Assembly: GCA_963699815.1 (NCBI GenBank)
Contig: CAVOVK010000004.1
Coordinates: 74,478-138,477 of the forward strand
Direction: 5' to 3'
DNA: 64,000 nt
Source: an uncultured Acidimicrobiaceae bacterium
GTDB taxonomy: Bacteria; Actinomycetota; Acidimicrobiia; Acidimicrobiales; Ilumatobacteraceae
Positions 22,008 through 32,663 of the stretch are shown one piece after another. The translations under genes were made by a program, and so were the position numbers. Position 1 is the stretch's first letter. The number at the start of each line of letters is the position of its first letter. The notes under the pieces are model-generated. The model saw nothing but the letters and a program-made list of their open reading frames with translations, was not told the DNA's origin and did no database searches.

Positions 22008-24201
22008 TCAGTGGGCGAACTTCACGTTCGGCATGATCCGGTCGATCCAGCGGGGCAGCCACCACGCCTTGTTGCCGATGATGAAGAGCGCGGCGGGCAC
22101 CAGCACCAGCCGGATCAGGAAGGCGTCGAGGAGCACCGCCGTCCCGAGGATCAGACCCATTTCCTTCATCGGCAGCGTTCCGGCGATGGCGAAGGTGTAG
22201 AACACGGCGATCATGACACCGGCCGCCGCCACGATCGGCCGACCGACGTGGCCGAGCGACCCGCGGACGGCCTCGTTCGCATCGCCCGACCGTTCGAAGT
22301 GCTCACGGGTGGAGGCCAGCAGGAACACCGTGTAATCCATCGAGATCGCGAACACGAGGGCGAAGAAGAACAGCGGCGCCCACGAGGTGAGGTAGCCCTG
22401 GCTGTCGAATCCGAGCAGGTCGGCACCCATACCGTGCTGGAACACGAGCGCACCGACGCCGAAGGCAGCGCCGACCGAGAGCAGGTTGAAGATCACACCG
22501 ACGAAGGCGACGATGATCGCCTGCAGGGCGAGGATCAACAGCAAGAAGCCGAGCACGAGCACGACGCCGATGACCAGTGGTGCCTTCTCGCTGAGTGTTC
22601 GGTCGAGGTCGTAGTTCTCGGCGACCGGACCACCGACGAGCACACCGTCGGGCAGCTCGGTCCGCAGGGTCGGGATCAGCGCCAGCGCCTCGACGGACGA
22701 CGGGATCGTACCCACCGACGGCCTGGATGATGCTGGCGCCATCGGCGCCCGGCTGGGGCGGGAACGCCATGACGATGCCGTCGGTGGCCATGACCTGATC
22801 GGCGACGGCCTGTGGATCCTCACCGGCCGGAACGATCACCTGGATCGGTCCCGGGCCTCCTGGGCCGAACCCGTCGGCGATCATGTCGTAGCCCTGTCGG
22901 GCCTGTTCGTCCTCCGGGAGCACCGTGATACCCGGCATCCCGGTCTTCAGACCGAGCAACGGCAGGGCGAGCGCCAGCAGCACCACGATCGAACCCGCAG
23001 CGACCACGACCTTGCGGGCCTGGATCCGGTCGGCGAGGCGGGCGAAGAACTCGCTGTGGTGGTCACCCTTGCTGTGCCACGGCAGGGCGAACCTGTCGAT
23101 GCCGGGGCCGAGCAGTGCAGGGAGCAGGGTCAACGCGGCGAGCAGCACGAAGCTGACGGAGAGCATCATGCCGGCCGCCATCGAGCGGAAGGCGGGGATC
23201 GGCACCAGCAGCACGGCCGAGAGGCTGATCAACACGGTGATGCCCGAGAACAGGACCGCTTTCCCCGCGGTGTCCATGGCGATGCCCGCCGCGTGTTGCG
23301 GGTCCTCCGGGTGGGCGTGCAGCGCGGCTCGGTAACGGGTGACGATGAAGAGCGCATAGTCGATGCCCAGTGCGAGCGCGAACATCATGGCGAAGTTCAG
23401 CGTCCAGATCGACAGGTCGGTGGTCTGCGTGATCCCGTACAGCACGCCCATCGAGGCGAGCAGTCCTGCCGCGGTGAGCACGAGCGGAAGGCCGGCCGCG
23501 GCGAGCGTGCCGAAGGCGATCACGAGGATGATGGCCGTGACCGGCCACGTCAGGATCTCGGCCTTCATCATCCCCTCGCGGTTGACGGCGTTGAAGTCGT
23601 CCCAGAACGCCGGCGACCCGGTCAGGGCCACCTCGATCTCGTCGCCGGCCACCTCGGTCGAGAGCTCGGCGATGTCGTCGCCGAGGCGTTCCGCGGCGCG
23701 AACCGCTTCGGTCGGGTCGACGTCGGCTCCGGCCTGGATCATCACGGTCATGCCGTCCATGCCGGGCTGTGCGGGCATCGGCTGCCCGAATCCCGGCTCG
23801 GCGAGGATCAGCGTGTTGACCTCGGAAATCACCTGCTGGTAGGTGGGATCGTCGATCGGTGTCGACTGGCTCTGGATCACCACGACGGCGGACTGCGAGG
23901 AGAGACCGCCGAACTGCTCGTCGATCACGTCGCGGGCGGCGAGCGATTCGCTGCCGTTGACCTCCCACATGGCGCCGGACAACGCGTGTTCGAGTTTGGG
24001 CGCGAAGACGCCCAAGCCGATCGCCAACACGGCCCACGCGGCGATCACGAATCTGCGATGTGAGTGCGCCGCCCGGCCGATGCGGGCGAGCGGCGGGTGC
24101 TCGACGTCGGTGTCGAGGTCGTCGTGATGGGGTGCAACATTAGACACTTCATGCGCATCTAGCGATGCATCGGTGTCGGGTGGGTCGATGTCGATACTCA
24201 T
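22008..24201 (-). CDS. MMPL family transporter (frameshift ~22720)
   Basis: ALGIDYALFIVTRYR, AISMDYTVFLL, LDAFLIRLVLVPA, WWLPRW. Confidence 0.9.
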
Positions 24202-24659: not shown

Positions 24660-24710
24660 CCATCCATCTTGACCATCCATCTTGACCATCCATCTTGACC
24701 ATCCATCTTG
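24660..24710. repeat. 13-bp tandem repeat (CCATCCATCTTGA) x~4
   Basis: Three exact units and one 12/13 unit, read directly. Confidence 0.95.
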
Positions 24711-24836
24711 GAGGACACTGCATGGACGCCAGGCGAGACCAACAGATGCAGACGAGGTACAGGATCGGCTGATGAACCCGACGGCGATTCGGCTGGCAGG
24801 ATGGTCGGGACGACTTCAACCAGGAGGCCATCCGTC

Positions 24837-26116
24837 TTGAGTTCCGAGATTCTCCATGACGAGCACGGTGCACCGATCACCGCGCCCGTGCACGACTGGG
24901 CGACCGACTACGACATCTTCGACCCAGGCTATGTCACGGATCCGTACGGGATCTGGGACGAACTACGCCAGAGCTGCCCGATGGCACACACCGACCGGTG
25001 GGGCGGATCGTGGCTGCCGACGCGTTACGCCGACGTGTACGCGATCGCACACGACATCGAGAAATTCCCGTCCGGCAACGGCATCAGCGTCGTCCCGCTG
25101 GTCGACCCCACGATCGACGACGACTCGGTTCCGGCCAACGCTCCGTCTCCGATCCTGACGTCCGGAGTGCCGCCGATCAGCGCCGACCCACCGCTGCACA
25201 CCTGGACCCGGCGCCTGATCCTGCCCACCATGAGCCCCGCCCGGGTCGCCGAGTACGAGGTGTTCACGCGCGCGAGCTGTGTCGGCGTCTCGTCGATGAC
25301 GTGCTCGAACGAGGCAACGGTGATGCCGCATCCGAATATGCCCAACAGATCCCTGTCCGCGTGATCGGTCACATCCTCGGCGTGCCCGAAGAGATGTCGG
25401 CAACGTTCACCGAGTGGGTGCGCGACGTGCTCGAGTTCGCCCACGATCTGGAGCGCCGACGTGCCGGCATCGGCCACATCATCCACTACTTGCACGAAGC
25501 GATCGAGGCCCGCCGGGCCGAGCCGCAGGACGACTTCATCACCGAGCTGCTCAACAGCGAGCACGACGGCGAGCCGATCGGGATACCGGTCGTGATGGGC
25601 ATGTGCGCCCTACTGCTGATCGCCGGCATCGACACCACGTGGTCCTCGATCGGCTCGACGATGTGGCACCTCGCCACCCATCCCGACGATCGTCGTCGTC
25701 TCGTCACCGAGCCCGACCTGATGCCGACCGCGATCGAGGAGTTCCTGCGGGCGTACGCGCCGGTCACGATGGCGCGTCGGCTGGTCGAGGACAAGGAGTA
25801 CGAAGGCTGCCCGATGAAGGCCGGCGAGCGGATCCTGATGAACTTCCCCGCCGCCAACCGCGACCCCGAGGTGTTCCCCGATGCCGACGAGGTGATTCTC
25901 GACCGCCGCCAGAATCGGCACCTCGCGTTCGGAGCCGGCATCCATCGGTGCGCCGGCTCGAACCTGGCCCGCATGGAGCTTCGCGTCGCCGTCGAGGAGT
26001 GGCTGGCACAGATCCCCGAGTTCGGCCTGATCGACCCCGGACTCGTCACGTGGGCCGGTGGCCAGGTCCGAGGGCCGCGTTCGATCCCGGTGCGGGTGGG
26101 CACATCTGGCTCATAA
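24837..26116 (+). CDS. Cytochrome P450 (frameshift ~25270)
   Basis: DPPLH, AGIDTT, EEFLR (ExxR), AANRDP, HLAFGAGIHRCAG heme motif. TTG start follows AGGAGG. Confidence 0.92.
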
Positions 26117-26144: not shown

Positions 26145-26870
26145 ATGCTGTTGGTTGACCTCGTTGCGATCCAGGTCGATGCCCGTACGGGCACGTCCGT
26201 GCTCGTACTTCGCGAGCACGACGCTCCCCACCGAATGCTGCCGATCGTCGTGGGTGGCGATGCCGCCGCATCGATCGCGATCGCTGCCAGTGGCCAGCAC
26301 CCTCCGCGCCCGATGACCCACGATCTCATGGCAACCCTGGTCGAGAGCTTCGAGGGTCATCTCGACGCGGTCGAGGTGACCGACCTCCAAGACGGCGCCT
26401 TCATCGCCAACCTCGCGATCAGCGGACCGATCGGCGACCGCCGTATCGATACGCGCCCGTCCGATGCGATCGCGTTGGCGGTTCGCCTGCACGCGCCGCT
26501 CTACGTCAGCGAGCACGTGCTCGCCGAGGCCGGCGCGCTCCCGGCGGTCGAGACGGACGTCTTGGACGAGGTGGCGATCGATGCCGAGGTCGACCAATTC
26601 CGCAGCTTCCTGGCCGACCTCGACCCGACCGACTTCCTACCGGACACGCCCGATCCCGACCCGACCGACTTCCTGCCGGACGCGCCCGATCCCGACCCGG
26701 CCGACTTCCTGCCCGACGCGCCCGATCCCGACCCGACCGACTTCCTACCGGACACGCCCGATCCCGACCCGACCGACTTCCTGCCCGACGTGCCCGATCC
26801 CGACCCGGACGGACGTCGATCCCGAACGTCACGACCCGGAAGCGACCGACGGTCCCGCGACAGGCTGAGG
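26145..26870 (+). CDS. Bifunctional nuclease (DUF151) family protein with repetitive acidic tail; 3' end uncertain
   Basis: LPIVVG, PRPMTHDL, DTRPSDAIALA, EVDQFRSFLADLDPTDF. Confidence 0.85.
26622..26807 (+). repeat. 36-bp coding tandem repeat x5 (DPTDFLPDTPDP)
   Basis: Read directly; units differ at a few positions. Confidence 0.95.
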
Positions 26871-26902: not shown

Positions 26903-27661
26903 TCACCGACCGGTGAAGTCTGGGAGGCGACGCTCTCCCATCGCACGCGTTCCTTCGGCGAAGTCCTCGGTCGCCTGGAGCCGAGCCTGTTCGGCGGCCT
27001 CGTGCGCCGTCGCCACCGCGACCCGGTCGGCGAGATCCCCCCGCAACGTGGCGCGGATCGAGCGAACGGCGAGCGGGGCCGACCGGGCGATCTCGAGCGC
27101 GAACGTGTGGGCGGCTGCGCCCAGCTCGTCGATCGGCACCAGCCGATCGGCGAGACCCATCGTTCGTGCCTCTTCCCCGTCGACCCGCCGTCCCGTGTAG
27201 AGCAGATCGGCTGCCGCCTGCTCGCCGACCACGCGGGGCAGCGTGACGCTCAGGCCGAAACCCTGGTGAAAGCCGAGCCGAGCGAAGTTGGCGCTGAATC
27301 GAGCCTCGGGTGCAGCGAACCGGAAGTCTGCCGCCAGCGCGAGACCGAGCCCGCCACCGATCGCCGCGCCCTGTACGGCGGCGACGATCGGCTTCGCGCA
27401 ACGGAAGATGCGCACGGCGGTCGCGTACAGGTCTTCGGTGGTGTACGAACGGTCGCCGCCGAAATCGGCGCCGGCACAAAAGTGCTTGCCCCGGGCACGC
27501 AGCACGATCGCCCGGCAGCGGTCGTCGGCGTCGAGACGTTCGAGCGCGTCGGCGATGCCACCGATGATGTCCATCGAGAAGAAGTTGTTCGGCGGACGAC
27601 GCATCTCGACCGTCGCCACATGATCGTCGGCGACGGAACTGTGAACGGCTTCCTCGGACAT
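26903..27661 (-). CDS. Enoyl-CoA hydratase/isomerase
   Basis: FCAGAD, KPIVAAVQGAAIGGG, LAADFR, EDFAEG. Confidence 0.9.
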   Translation of the reverse strand: MSEEAVHSSVADDHVATVEMRRPPNNFFSMDIIGGIADALERLDADDRCRAIVLRARGKHFCAGADFGGDRSYTTEDLYATAVRIFRCAKPIVAAVQGAAIGGGLGLALAADFRFAAPEARFSANFARLGFHQGFGLSVTLPRVVGEQAAADLLYTGRRVDGEEARTMGLADRLVPIDELGAAAHTFALEIARSAPLAVRSIRATLRGDLADRVAVATAHEAAEQARLQATEDFAEGTRAMGERRLPDFTGR

Positions 27662-27748
27662 GTGCCGACGGTACTTTCCGCGCTCCGGTGCGAACGATCG
27701 CAGCCGGCAGGCCATCGACTGCGATCAGCGGATCGGGCGGGTCGACCG

Positions 27749-28603
27749 CTATGGCTCGACGTCGTCGCCGCTGGCGGCGCGGTCGACCGCAGATCGACGG
27801 TGACGCCGTAGTGGTCGGAGGCCAGCACGCCGCCCACCGGTTCGACACCGATCAGGGCGGCTCGTACCGGGTTGCCGAGCGGGCACAGCCTGGGCCAGCC
27901 CACCAGTACGTAGTCGAGCCGTCGCTCCGGCCAGGCCGAGTCGACGACGTACGGGTTCGACGCGGAGTACGTCGCTCCCGGCCCACGCCCCGCCTGCGCC
28001 CAGGCGTCGGTGAACACCAGAGCCGGGAACCGCCGGCTCGGTGAGGCCGGTGAGGCGCCGCACCTCGTCGCTGTCGGGGACGGCATTGAGGTCGCCGAGC
28101 ACGATCGGGGGATACGCGCGATACGGACCATCGCGCTCTTCAGCGACCAGTGCCGCGACCTGGTCGAGCTGGCGGCGGCGTAGACCGCTCTGGTCGAATC
28201 CATGCGACAGGTGGGTGCAGTAGACCCGCAGGACGCCATGCGGTGAGGAGATCGTCGCCCGCAGCACCGTCCGATGCGGCGGCATCGAACCCACGTCGAG
28301 GTATCGCCACACGGTCTCGACGATCGGCCAGCGCGATGCGATCGCATTGGCGATCCCGTGTCGATCATCGTCACCGTCGGGGGCCGTCACCACGGCATAG
28401 CCCAGCTCGTCGCGCAGCGACGCGATCTGGTCGGGCTCGCGGGTGCTCACCTCCTGGAATCCCACGACATCGGCATCGACACCACGCAGGACGTCGAAGA
28501 TCGCCGGCTGCCTCGCCCGCCAATCGCCATTGCGACACCACAGGTTCCAGGTCGCAACTCGCAGCGTGCCCGCCGGTCGGGGCGGGTCCCGGCGAGCGCT
28601 CAT
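27749..28603 (-). CDS. Endonuclease/exonuclease/phosphatase family protein (frameshift ~28020)
   Basis: VATWN, GFQEV, THL, GDLN, RLDYV, SDHY. Confidence 0.85.
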   Translation of the reverse strand: MSARRDPPRPAGTLRVATWNLWCRNGDWRARQPAIFDVLRGVDADVVGFQEVSTREPDQIASLRDELGYAVVTAPDGDDDRHGIANAIASRWPIVETVWRYLDVGSMPPHRTVLRATISSPHGVLRVYCTHLSHGFDQSGLRRRQLDQVAALVAEERDGPYRAYPPIVLGDLNAVPDSDEVRRLTGLTEPAVPGSGVHRRLGAGGAWAGSDVLRVEPVRRRLGLAGATARLRTGGLAQAVPARQPGTSRPDRCRTGGRRAGLRPLRRHRRSAVDRAASGDDVEP

Positions 28604-28826: not shown

Positions 28827-30306
28827 TCAGTAGCTGCCGCGGATCAACTCGACGTCGGCGGTGATCATCGGGACCCGGATGTTCACACCGTGCATCGTCA
28901 GTTCGACGCTGGCACCCTCGATGCCGTGCACGTCCCAGTTCCGGGGCTCTGCGCCGACCAACCGAAAACTCGTGAATCGTCCCGGGTCGTCGCGCAACGG
29001 AGCGAGTCGCAGGTGCAGGTTGCCGTCGATCCATTCGGCGCGGCGGAACGCCATCGTCGGGAAGTCGACGTCGACGAGCTGCGGGCACACCTCGAGCGGA
29101 GCCTCCGACAGCCGTGTCCACAACCCGGGGCCGGCTGCCTCCGCAGCGGCGAGGAAGGCGTTGAACTGACCTCTCGGATACGGCTCGTCGAGGCCCATGC
29201 CCCATGTGAACTCGCCTCGGTCCGAGTCCCAGGTCGGCTCGTAGGACGCCTCGATCGCGTCGGTGGTTCGGTCGTCGAGTTCGTGCATCTCCCACTCACG
29301 GGCCAGGATCAACGCCGAGGCGAAGGCGCGACTGGCCGGGAGCGGAAGCCGGCGTGAGCCGTCGAGTCCGATCGAGACGCACGCCGCCCGGAACAGGCGT
29401 CGGGCGTCGTCGGGCACCTGGGGGGCTGCGTAGAACGACGTGGTCAGCGCCGCCGCCACCGGTAGCCGATGGTGCACGTCGAGCCGTGGGTCGTAGTCGA
29501 AGGTCGTCACCTGGGGTGCCGTCTCGCAGTCCAGGTCGAGGTAATGCTGACGGGCGTAAGCCCACCATGGCTCGAATGCCTGATGGTGGAAATCGGTGCC
29601 GTGGCGGTTGTCGTGGAGCCTCAGACCGAGGCCGGCTCCGGCCAGTCAAAACGGCCAGACCTTGGTGTTTTCTCAATGGCAACCGATGGGCGCTGCCAAC
29701 CACTGGCGGCACAGGTGTTCGGCGATCTGGGAGTGGGTCCAGGTGAACGTGTTGTCGCCGTCGCGGATCAGCTCGAACGGCCGGTTCCACGTGTCATCGG
29801 CGTTCTGGGCGTTGTCGATCATCGATCGGATGCCGAGCAGCACCAGGAAGAACCCCTTGTAGAACAGCATCCCATCGGCGGCGACAGGATCCATCTGCAG
29901 ACCCCACGGTTCCGTGCCGTTGGCGGTCCAACCCGGCACGTCGTAGTCGCCCCACAGTCGAGGTGGAATGAACGGCCGATAGATGTCGGGGTAGTCGGAC
30001 CGGTCCGGGTCGTGGCCGAACTGGGTCAACCAGTCGGCAGCCGACCACCAGCCGGTGTGGCGCTCGATCAGCTGGTCGAGGATCGCGACGTACGGTTCGG
30101 TCCACGCCGGTGTTCGGTGCGCCATCGAGTCCCATCGCATACGACGAGTCCACCAGGTCGAAACGATGCCAACTCGCCATCGGCGGATCCGACCGATCGT
30201 CCCAGTGCGGGTGTGGTCGCCCGGCTCGGCTCCAGTCGTCGGGCGTATTCGCTTTGCGGTGTAGGTACCGCAGCCATCCCAGCGACCGTTCCGACAGCGC
30301 CTTCAT
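28827..30306 (-). CDS. Linalool dehydratase/isomerase (LinD)-family protein, putative selenoprotein with two Sec codons (~490 aa; one probable 1-nt insertion ~30127)
   Basis: Three ORF-track pieces join into one gene. DPVAADGMLFYKGFF resembles LinD DPIEKENIMYKGHL (recalled). In-frame TGA at 29673-29675 and 29646-29648 gives U-x8-U, and the frame then stays open to 28827. Confidence 0.78.
29615..29639 (-). promoter_or_regulatory. Putative bacterial SECIS hairpin for the second UGA
   Basis: GGA-(GCCG bulge)-GCCUC-GGUCU-GAGGC-UCC. GGU CUG are codons +7/+8 after the UGA, as in E. coli fdhF. Confidence 0.7.
29648..29671 (-). promoter_or_regulatory. SECIS-like hairpin between the two UGA codons
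   Basis: AAAAC-A-CCA-AGGUC-UGG-CC-GUUUU; contains AGGUCUG. Confidence 0.45.
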
Positions 30307-30526
30307 ACTCGACGTCGGCACTCGAATCCGCCGCTGCCCACCCCGGCCGAGAAGATCCCGATTCCCATCGAACCAACCTAAACCACCACGTTCGGTTGCG
30401 GCCGGTTCGGGCCCCGACGGTCGAGCGATCGGTGCTCGAGGTCGGTACGTCGCGCCCGCTCAGCCCACCGACACCATCCACACCCAAACCAGCCACACCG
30501 GTACCAGCCACACCGGTACCATCCAC

Positions 30527-31402
30527 GTGGTGGGTACGGACAGGATCGCCATCGAGCCGCTGGACGCCATGTTCGGCGCTGTCGTGCGGGGGATCACCGT
30601 GAGCGAACTCGACCCGTCCGGGATCGAGCGAGATACACGAGGCGTGGGTCGAGTTCGGTCTGCTCGTGTTTCCCGAGCAGCATCTCACCCTGGCCGAGCA
30701 GGACGACTTCGCGCGCGCGCTTCGGCGAGCTCGAGTACGACGCGACCGCGCTCACCGACCTCCGGCGCGATGGAACGGTTCGCGACCCGTCGCGAAGCGT
30801 TGGTCAGGTCGTTACGCGGCAACGAGGGCTGGCATCACGACAGCACCTACCTGCCGGTGCAGGCCAAAGGGGCGGTGTTCAGCGCCGAGATCATCCCGAC
30901 CGAGGGCGGTGCCACGGGGTTCGCCGACATGAGGGCGGCGTACGACGCGCTCGATCGGGCCACCCGTTCGTCGATCGCCCAGCTGAGCGCTCACCACTCC
31001 CGGCGCTACAGCATGGAACGGTCGGGGAATCAGGTGTCCGAAGGGGAGGCCGGTACCTATCAGCTCTACGGCTACCACGACGATGAACCGCCGCTACGAC
31101 CACTCGTGAAGGTGCATCCCGACACCGGGCGTCCGAACCTGCTGATCGGTCAGCACGCATTCGGGGTCCTCGGCTTGAGTGACGACGAGTCGGTCGCCGT
31201 GCTCGATCGTCTCAACGACGAGGCATGCCGGGCGTCGCTCACCTACCACCACGAGTGGAGCGTCGGTGACGCCGTGCTGTGGGACAACCGGCGCCTCATG
31301 CATCGCGCAACGCCCCACGACCCGACCCAACCACGCCGCATGTGGCACACCCGCATCGCCGGCGACCCTGCGACCGAAACCGCCACCAACTACCGACGGT
31401 GA
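30527..31402 (+). CDS. TauD/TfdA family Fe(II)/2-oxoglutarate dioxygenase (frameshifts ~30630-30790; start uncertain)
   Basis: WHHDSTY (HxD), GGATGFADM, PLVKVHPDTGR, WDNRRLMHRA. Confidence 0.88.
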   Translation: MVGTDRIAIEPLDAMFGAVVRGITVSELDPSGIERDTRGVGRVRSARVSRAASHPGRAGRLRARASASSSTTRPRSPTSGAMERFATRREALVRSLRGNEGWHHDSTYLPVQAKGAVFSAEIIPTEGGATGFADMRAAYDALDRATRSSIAQLSAHHSRRYSMERSGNQVSEGEAGTYQLYGYHDDEPPLRPLVKVHPDTGRPNLLIGQHAFGVLGLSDDESVAVLDRLNDEACRASLTYHHEWSVGDAVLWDNRRLMHRATPHDPTQPRRMWHTRIAGDPATETATNYRR

Positions 31403-31403
31403 T

Positions 31404-31470
31404 CGACCACGGACGATCACCGACCATCGGACGATCACCAACCACGGAGTCACCGACCACGGACGATCAC
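31404..31470. repeat. ~17-bp imperfect tandem repeat x4 (CGACCACGGACGATCAC)
   Basis: Read directly, immediately after the TauD stop. Confidence 0.85.
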
Positions 31471-31629
31471 CAGTGATCGGCGTCGCGGATGGTCGGAGCG
31501 AGCAACGGCTCGCCATCGAGATCGTCCATCCGGTGTTCCCACACCTCGTCGCACTCGCGCCTCCCTCGCCATCGTCGCTGCAAGCGGTGACGGCCAACCC
31601 GGCCCGTGCCCAGGTGTCATCATGAGGGG

Positions 31630-32663
31630 ATGCCGATCGACTCTCCATCGACTCCCAGCGCGGCAGGCTTCGCGATGCCGGCCGAATGGGAGCCGCACGC
31701 GGGCTGTCTGATGGCGTGGCCGTCACGGGCCGAGCTGTGGGGTGACCACCTCACGGCTGCCAAGCACGACTACGCCGCGGTGGCGACCGCGATCGCCGAG
31801 TTCGAACCGGTGGTGATGGTGTGCAATCCGGGACACGGCGCCGAGGTACGAGCGTTGTGCGGTTCGGTCGTGTCACCGATCGAGATCCCGATCAACGATT
31901 CGTGGGCCCGCGACAGTGGGCCGGCATTCGCGCGGCGACGTCGACGGCGACGTGGCGGTGGTCGGGTTCGGATTCAACGCCTGGGGCAATCGGTGGCATC
32001 CCCACGACGACGATGCCCGATTGTCGCTGCGGCTGGCCGAATGGCTCGGGCTGCCCTACTTCGAGGCGCCGTTCGTGCTGGAAGGTGGATCGTTCTTCGT
32101 CGACGGCGAGGGAACCCTGATCACCACCGAGGAGTGCCTGCTCAACCCAACCGCAATCCTGAACTGTCGCGCGCTCAGATCGAGCAGGGCCTGAAGGACT
32201 ACCTGGGAGCGAGCACGGTGATCTGGTTGCCGTACGGACACAGTCTCGACACCGGCCCGGCCGGAACCGACGGGCATGTCGACGGTGTGCTGCAGTACGT
32301 GGCACCGGGCCACGTGATGTTGGAAGTGGTCTCCGACCCATCGTCACCGGAGTACCCGCCGGCCACGCGAACCTCGAGATCCTGACTGGATCCCTCGATG
32401 CCGCAGGCCGCCGCTTCGACATCACGATCCTCGACCCCGGCACGACGACCGAGGTGTCATATGCCAATCATTACCTCGCCAACGGCGGTGTGATCGTGCC
32501 CGTCGGCGGCGACGCCGCCGACGGACCGGCGCTCGAGACCTTGCGAGCTCTGTACCCGGATCGCGAGGTCGTCGCGGTGCCCGGGGCAACGATCGCGTTC
32601 GGTGGTGGAGGGCCGCACTGCATCACGCAGCAGATCCCACTCGGAGTCGATCTCCCCGGCTGA
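31630..32663 (+). CDS. aguA: Agmatine deiminase family protein (several frameshifts)
   Basis: MPAEWEPH, DSWARDSGP, LEGG, TDGHVDG, SYAN, GGGGPHCITQQ. Confidence 0.85.

Follow-up and report, generated by a model that had tools for sequence, protein, structure and literature searches.

A short hairpin (hairpin B) downstream of the second of two in-frame UGA codons (UGA1 and UGA2) in a linalool-dehydratase-like (Ldi-family) gene is most probably a bacterial SECIS element through which UGA2 is read as selenocysteine, at one of the enzyme's predicted catalytic cysteine positions, with sharing of the same element as our model for UGA1. The gene lies on the minus strand of the window, by which we mean the whole 64,000-nucleotide stretch of DNA that was analysed, and the features discussed are collected in Table 1. 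Comparison of homologous sequences makes it very likely that hairpin B is a SECIS acting on UGA2. The wider proposal, that one SECIS serves two UGAs spaced 27 nt apart in the same frame and builds a non-redox lyase whose two catalytic positions are both selenocysteine, is put forward tentatively, at somewhat less than even confidence.

If this assignment holds, gene callers are cutting in two the members of a widespread selenoprotein family, and selenocysteine would sit in a hydro-lyase/isomerase fold, not in a redox enzyme. The natural Cys/Cys, Cys/Sec and Sec/Sec forms would offer a ready comparison for the disputed mechanism of LinD. The tandem hairpins in a 60-nt cassette bear on how a bacterial ribosome decodes two close UGAs, each of which normally needs a SECIS at a fixed distance, and on the production of multi-selenocysteine proteins in bacteria. 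PF18566 (Ldi) is absent from the whole 119-family selenoprotein table of a 2026 review (PMC13188914). The accessible part of a preprint with 69 predicted families makes no mention of linalool, Ldi or dehydratase, and its list could include the Ldi family. In the literature within reach, which mostly excluded subscription journals, we found no report tying the Ldi family to selenocysteine and no account of a single bacterial SECIS that serves two UGAs; the deep-Sep supplements could list the family.

Table 1. Positions of the gene, its recoded codons and the predicted RNA elements in the window
Feature	Position	Strand	Description
Ldi-family (PF18566) gene	28827..30321	-	~497 codons from ATG 30321, read across one extra base
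Extra base splitting 5' part of gene	30126..30127	-	Two frames join there
UGA1	29673..29675	-	LinD Cys171 position (C-H-U-E); ~residue 216; TGA in 81/108 distinct homologues
UGA2	29646..29648	-	LinD Cys180 position (W-P-F-U-L); ~residue 225; TGA in 92/108 distinct homologues
Hairpin A	29637..29659	-	8-bp stem UCUGGCCG/UGGCCGGA, 7-nt loop containing UGA2, begins 13 nt past UGA1
Hairpin B (putative SECIS)	29617..29633	-	6-bp stem GGCCUC/GAGGCU, -8.6 kcal/mol, begins 12 nt past UGA2
Apical loop GGUCU	29623..29627	-	18 nt past UGA2; invariant in 92/92
AGG Arg codon (3' arm of hairpin B)	29619..29621	-	AGA variants always with upstream GGU (U-A pair)

The gene and its two in-frame UGA codons

When TGA is read as selenocysteine, a single frame extends from 30140 to 28827 on the minus strand, with two internal UGAs nine codons apart and the true TGA stop at 28829-28827. 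The peptide around both sites reads G-C-H-U-E-N-T-K-V-W-P-F-U-L-A-G-A-G-L-G-L-R-L. The 34 bases quoted in the original prediction match the minus strand exactly from 29648 to 29615, and the UGA quoted there is the second of the two in frame.

The 5' part of the gene is split by an extra base. This base is likely a sequencing or assembly error because contigs from three public runs (X1, X2 and X16) have one base fewer near 30126-30127, and the true start of the gene is probably the ATG at 30321. Several neighboring genes are apparently split by frameshifts as well (window 22008-24201, 24708-26116, 27250-28603, 30500-31402 and 31606-32400). They include an MMPL-like transporter (assigned by eye), a cytochrome P450, an endonuclease/phosphatase, a TauD dioxygenase and an agmatine-deiminase-like gene, and the splits are consistent with indel errors in the assembly. 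Repeats were also seen in this region: a bifunctional-nuclease-domain gene ends in about five tandem 36-nt units around 26600-26800 (plus strand), translated as a P-D-P-D-P-T-D-F-L repeat, and the TauD gene is flanked at both ends by short imperfect tandem repeats (~30490-30530 and ~31400-31480).

The many frameshifts in the window, one of them within the Ldi-family gene, would suit an explanation in which the UGAs are real stops, reflecting a pseudogene, a split gene or a sequencing error, and the hairpin is due to chance. Some rule-passing hairpin is indeed common, since 576 of 5000 random TGA triplets in the genome (~12%) satisfy a loose published SECIS rule. We nevertheless regard this explanation as negligible. 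Many assemblies carry the same two TGAs, in 81 distinct sequences altogether. Purifying selection acts on each half of the gene (median dN/dS 0.11 and 0.25 against 66 relatives), the freezing of synonymous sites is confined to the surroundings of UGA2, and a cut would split the middle of a confidently predicted fold. The two UGA sites account for 144 of the 147 stops found in 31,834 aligned codons. Short homologues in protein databases have the same boundaries: among the 120 matches listed (292 found), 115 end exactly before either site, 27 before site 1 and 88 before site 2, in records in which the stop codon itself is invisible. Contigs of relatives from RNA runs X15 and X16 cover the UGA site in small shares, and therefore no claim is made about expression.

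The base directly 5' of each UGA is also biased. U precedes UGA1 (window 29676, minus strand; CAU) in 56 and UGA2 (29649, minus strand; UUU) in 58 of 67 two-UGA genes, and occurs at these positions in 1 and 3 of 12 Cys/Cys genes. The preferred U is possibly a codon-context effect on read-through.

The hairpin downstream of UGA2

Homologues were collected from genomes and metagenomes. The site was not covered in 14 of the 148 loci inspected, and merging of duplicates left 108 distinct sequences; locus L162 (genome G676) was excluded from every count. At the two sites the sequences comprised 81 UGA/UGA, 11 Cys/UGA, 14 Cys/Cys and 2 Ser/His forms and no UGA/Cys form. Two collection scans were queried with the window protein's own peptides, which biases the set toward its clade, and the Cys controls were drawn from few families. 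The refuting condition set by the original prediction, a hairpin equally kept in Cys-only homologues, did not hold: CUC GGU CUG AGR occurs in 92 of 92 genes with UGA2 and in 0 of 14 Cys/Cys genes. The two Ser/His genes also lack it, so that it is absent from all 16 non-UGA sequences.

Codon usage points in the same direction. For the codon-column analysis we used 67 two-UGA genes that are less than 90% identical (median 71%). Four of the 136 conserved degenerate codon columns are invariant, namely codons +1, +6, +7 and +8 after UGA2. The loop codon GGU is found in 67 of 67 genes as compared with 19% elsewhere in two-UGA genes. At codon +9, where the original prediction had suggested that RNA structure selects the AGG arginine codon, AGR is used in all 67 genes but makes up 5% of the Arg codons elsewhere in the same genes, which supports that suggestion.

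The GCCUC/GAGGC pairing proposed earlier around GGUCU is the conserved stem, and it reaches 6 bp through a G-U pair. One free pair in this stem covaries: GGC is combined with AGG in 79 genes, GGU with AGA in 9 and GGU with AGG in 4, and GGC is never combined with AGA (as bases, C-G 79, U-A 9, U-G 4, C-A never), where the U-A rows may stem from few events. Stem B is 100% paired with this one two-sided change. Two-sided change is seen in only 1 of 14 pairs, a count equalled in 306 of 500 shuffles, and the protein sequence likewise fixes most stem positions. Together with an upstream hairpin (hairpin A) the structure is 98.5% paired, compared with at most 55% for slid controls. The central pairs hold in 0 and 4 of 12 Cys/Cys genes. 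RNAalifold returned, unprompted, 7 of the 8 pairs of hairpin A and all of hairpin B. A two-hairpin model matched only this site in the genome when 150 of 3575 candidates were scored.

The extension of the stem by GGA/UCC that had also been proposed did not survive the comparison. Its pair probability is 0.01 in this window and averages 0.0 over 67 homologues, the middle pair is kept in 48 and fails in 19 of these 67, and the GGA belongs to hairpin A, not to a lower stem of hairpin B.

Folding energies gave a different picture from the alignment. The minimum-energy fold of the 37-46 nt stretch in isolation is another pairing (z -0.4), and the structure drawn in the original prediction lies 4 kcal/mol above it. 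Wider stretches gave z values of -0.4 to -1.5, so that folding energy alone is insignificant, and we set energy z-scores aside as uninformative. The minimum-energy pairing GGAGCC/GGCUCC of the isolated stretch was rejected as a conserved fold, codon +4 varying freely. The GGCCUC-GGUCU-GAGGCU stem is thus recovered across homologues but not as the minimum-energy fold of the isolated stretch. Likewise, the support for recoding that had been read from the hairpin is borne out by the homologues (motif in 92/92 versus 0/14) and not by the folding energy of the single sequence. The exact 11-mer occurs at the same offset after 1 of 70,127 TGA triplets in the genome, with a motif that was chosen post hoc. 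Judged by homologue comparison, and not from the single sequence, hairpin B is far beyond chance.

Hairpin B was compared with the published description of bacterial SECIS elements. It is part of the coding sequence and closely follows an in-frame UGA aligned with Cys. Its 5-nt loop and 6-bp upper stem are within the allowed sizes (3-9 nt and 4-16 bp), the first two loop bases are GG in 92 of 92 genes, and the energy of -8.6 kcal/mol passes the limit of -7.5 kcal/mol. The distance of 18 nt from UGA2 to the loop is within the 16-37 nt of the consensus given in the Figure 2 legend of the review (PMC13188914), all four rules of which are satisfied by hairpin B, whereas UGA1, at 45 nt from the same loop, falls outside this range. 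Among the homologues, 60 of the 67 with two UGAs and 7 of the 10 with one also have a hairpin B that obeys all four rules, and the hairpin is tied to UGA, being missing in the Cys-only homologues. By these published rules the predicted structure is a member of the bacterial SECIS class, outside the fdhF subtype. A GGUCU just after UGA1 was rejected as a SECIS loop; it is unconserved, with Ile and Val codons alternating, and is not in a loop.

The likeness to E. coli fdhF on which the original prediction drew is partial. The fdhF sequence was quoted correctly (exact match to E. coli K-12 DNA), and GGU CUG occupies codons +7/+8 in both genes. In fdhF (b4079, UGA codon 140), as in the window, the UGA is in frame and followed by C and the SECIS is inside the coding sequence; G23 and U24 of fdhF, counted from the U of UGA, correspond by position to the second G and the U of the hairpin B loop. 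The likeness thus covers position and loop letters but not the bulged U17 or the lower stem. Position 17 in hairpin B is a paired G, the long lower stem is absent, and the loop is closed by C-G around 5 nt, as opposed to A-U around 4 nt in fdhF. An Rfam profile search found no SECIS family among the matches to E 10, and hairpin B falls outside the fdhF type as the Rfam SECIS models represent it. Because U17 is required for E. coli SelB, according to PMC8659212, a reporter assay in E. coli may give a false negative.

The SECIS elements of E. coli fdnG and fdoG have the same offset and register as hairpin B, with three pairs around RGUCU (GCA-AGUCU-UGC, against CUC-GGUCU-GAG in hairpin B) and AGU CUU at codons +7/+8. 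With its 5-nt RGUCU loop and Watson-Crick closing pair, hairpin B is, in predicted structure, closer to fdnG/fdoG than to fdhF. Unlike hairpin B, the fdnG/fdoG elements have a bulge and a lower stem, there is one UGA per gene, and an upstream hairpin is absent.

From established SelB biology, a ribosome positioned on UGA2 would hold the first 12 nt inside, and the remaining RNA would fold as hairpin B. Binding of the loop G and U by SelB would deliver Sec-tRNA to UGA2, and this route of selenium insertion via hairpin B is very likely the one used.

Hairpin A and the proposed decoding of UGA1

The 23 nt that form hairpin A enclose UGA2 in the loop. The stem has a predicted energy of -11.1 kcal/mol, with z -3.7 for the cut-out, the boundaries of which were chosen post hoc. 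The GGA codon at its base is conserved in 59 of 67 genes versus 11% elsewhere because it closes hairpin A. Mean pair probability is ~0.86 in two-UGA, 0.19 in single-UGA and ~0.1 in Cys/Cys genes, and the core is intact in 65 of 67, 2 of 10 and 3 of 12 of these groups, respectively. Stem B, by comparison, is paired in all 10 single-UGA genes. Changes in hairpin A are one-sided only, with no two-sided change, and the encoded protein leaves no choice at many of its bases.

A quick tree was computed from sequences that omitted the recoded segment and was rooted, by assumption, on the Cys/Cys side. Cys/Cys genes lie on one side, five single-UGA genes form a basal grade, and the 67 two-UGA genes form a well-supported clade in which five single-UGA genes and two long-branch Ser/His genes are nested. 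With this assumed root, the sequences suggest that Cys/Cys came first, then Cys/Sec and then Sec/Sec, and that reversion occurred several times. A broken hairpin A core is seen in 2 of the 67 two-UGA genes, as against three of the five nested revertants to Cys (the other two keep it intact) and all five basal single-UGA genes; the nominal p of 0.002 for its loss in revertants ignores kinship.

Some homologues stand apart. Loci L031 and L033 and proteins P0002, P0072 and P0116 have Ser/His or Cys/Gln at the catalytic positions and lack the SECIS; L031 and L033 are inside the two-UGA clade, on a long branch. Such homologues are possibly a derived form with another function. Locus L102 (G745:C193, labelled Gammaproteobacteria) is a broken copy of ~80% identity with several stops, for which the label or the binning may be off. 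One of the short database homologues is labelled Candidatus Entotheonellaceae by its source, and the single-UGA form therefore likely extends beyond Actinomycetota. In a search for DNA from other phyla, the phylum sample yielded 0 of 300 apart from this genome, viral contigs held no homologue DNA, and 2 plasmid hits were found at 39%.

The model that we favor for UGA1 is sharing. With the ribosome at UGA1, hairpin A would fold out 23 nt and hide UGA2 in its loop, which would bring the same SECIS to an effective distance of ~22-25 nt, close to the ~26 nt of an AhpC/TlpA-like candidate in this genome. Once the ribosome had unwound hairpin A, it would arrive at UGA2 and use the SECIS a second time, at normal spacing. 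Sharing is favored because hairpin A is without a conserved loop G and because UGA1 never occurs without UGA2 and hairpin B in the set of homologues collected here. That hairpin A lets both UGAs share one SECIS is still held at just below even confidence. In one trial with the first 12 nt past UGA1 blocked, the best fold of the window copy paired the region differently.

Hairpin A could also be a second, independent SECIS for UGA1, bound by SelB through an unusual U-rich loop, with hairpin B serving UGA2. It is a stable stem at the right distance and tied to UGA: its loop is 21 nt from UGA1, and its offset (13 nt) nearly equals that of hairpin B after UGA2 (12-13 nt). The loop reads UUUUGAC in 54 of 67 two-UGA genes, and the loose SECIS rule is satisfied in 42 of 67 if the loop is read as 9 nt starting at G. 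Some bacterial SECIS elements, moreover, depart from the consensus, as stated in the review (PMC13188914). The required G is, however, the base preceding the 7-nt loop, which itself starts with UU, and this base is G in 42, A in 23 and C in 2 of 67 genes. The loop is also without GG or GU, unlike those of hairpin B, fdhF, fdnG, fdoG and the two other candidates of this genome, and its U-richness may be codon context, U being preferred before UGA at both sites (56 and 58 of 67). UGA1 alone occurs in 0 of 108 genes. We consider an independent SECIS possible but on balance doubtful.

A pause or release-factor-blocking element that raises read-through of UGA1, with SelB arriving by another route, would account for the position of hairpin A at ribosome entry distance (13 nt), its stability and the conservation of its stem but not of a loop G. 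It would leave the delivery of SelB to UGA1 unexplained, and we consider it unlikely. The 3-nt linker between hairpins A and B is set by the coding frame and cannot separate these models from the sharing of one SECIS.

Predicted enzyme and selenocysteine machinery

The read-through protein matches Pfam Ldi (PF18566) with 35.5 bits against a gathering cut-off of 26.1; NCBIfam had no model for the 4 proteins tested, and a PDB search with the single sequence gave no match. In an alignment of 121 rows, the UGA columns are Cys in 104 (site 1) and 105 (site 2), and the nearest relatives, at 69-81% identity, are the 10 rows gapped at the sites, fragments that start after them. A profile built from 60 homologues matched solved LinD chains at E 1e-6, with Cys171, Glu172 and Cys180 of LinD paired to the C-E-x7-C motif. 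The AlphaFold model of a Cys homologue (P0008, 53% identical to the window protein) has a pLDDT of 93, and its best fold match is LinD (E 3e-11, 16-19% identity). The LinD fold and the C-x8-C pair with following Glu, as seen in the P0008 model, place the protein in the Ldi family. In the profile alignment the positions of the LinD pocket residues Met125 and His129 are Phe in the window protein, which sets it apart from true LinD orthologues. A true linalool dehydratase would also be a periplasmic pentamer with activity on linalool, myrcene or geraniol.

LinD/Ldi of Castellaniella defragrans (PDB 5G1U, 5HLR, 6TFT, 6TFR) shares the Pfam family, the fold and the aligned cysteine pair; the window protein differs by its length of ~500 residues with an extra strand-rich C-terminal region, by UGA at both cysteines and by the low identity. 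In two papers (PMC6013536 and PMC6600392, the latter numbering the residues 170 and 179) the cysteine pair is described as catalytic and the mechanism is disputed between acid/base and covalent thio-terpene catalysis. The product of the window gene would be a ~497-residue cofactor-free hydro-lyase/isomerase with a U-x8-U pair. Its likely nucleophile or base would be a selenolate, with an allylic alcohol or alkene as the target. Compared with a thiol, a selenol at neutral pH is more nucleophilic and donates protons less readily, and Sec at these sites would therefore lean to a covalent or base role. As substrate a terpenoid is a tentative suggestion, which we place short of even confidence. No neighbor is common to more than 9 of 70 loci, and gene neighborhood therefore gives no substrate clue. 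The 119-family table of the review (PMC13188914) includes bacterial proteins with 2-3 Sec per chain and motifs such as UxxU and UxxxxU, but a U-x8-U motif is absent. Redox or metal-binding proteins make up most of the families in it, unlike the window protein.

The genes selA, selB and selD are present in the genome, each over its family cut-off; at contigs C1 (32718-33626) and C17 (36852-39119) of this genome (G000) the SelD active site is Cys, and selA and selB are adjacent. Searches of the 62%-complete assembly for tRNA-Sec (selC) with Rfam, relaxed ARAGORN (noise only) and BLAST with relatives' tRNA-Sec gave none, and Rfam gave nothing near selAB or selD. Four overlong ARAGORN calls (Ala, Thr, Gly and Ile; 88-97 nt; contigs C1, C8, C14 and C18) may be false positives. 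A tRNA-Sec over the cut-off was found in 5 of 5 relatives. Among 61 chosen genomes, which are kin to each other and often incomplete, selA is present in 45 of 45 of the UGA type and in 8 of 16 others. A molybdopterin-enzyme match for comparison with a formate dehydrogenase SECIS was not found in this assembly.

SelB-dependent Cys insertion occurs in some bacteria, and the UGAs might be decoded as Cys or another residue by an unusual tRNA with a UCA anticodon. The lack of a tRNA-Sec in this incomplete assembly and the Cys at the active site of SelD itself would fit such decoding. The presence of selA and selD, which make selenocysteine, the canonical tRNA-Sec of relatives and the confinement of UGA to the two catalytic positions argue against it, and we consider it very improbable. 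Selenocysteine is the preferred reading at both sites.

Two other candidate selenoprotein genes in the genome combine an in-frame TGA with a G-loop hairpin. One is a UGSC-family gene (NF041046 over cut-off; L182, contig C25, 21634-22065, minus strand) with the TGA at U-G-S-C and, ~19 nt downstream, an 8-bp hairpin whose loop is GUG; it is a candidate selenoprotein of a known family. The other is the AhpC/TlpA-like gene (L189, contig C7, 41585-41917, plus strand), which encodes W-U-x-x-C and has an 8-bp hairpin with a GGUC loop past the TGA, the CCUC-GGUC-GAGG top of which is near-identical to that of hairpin B.
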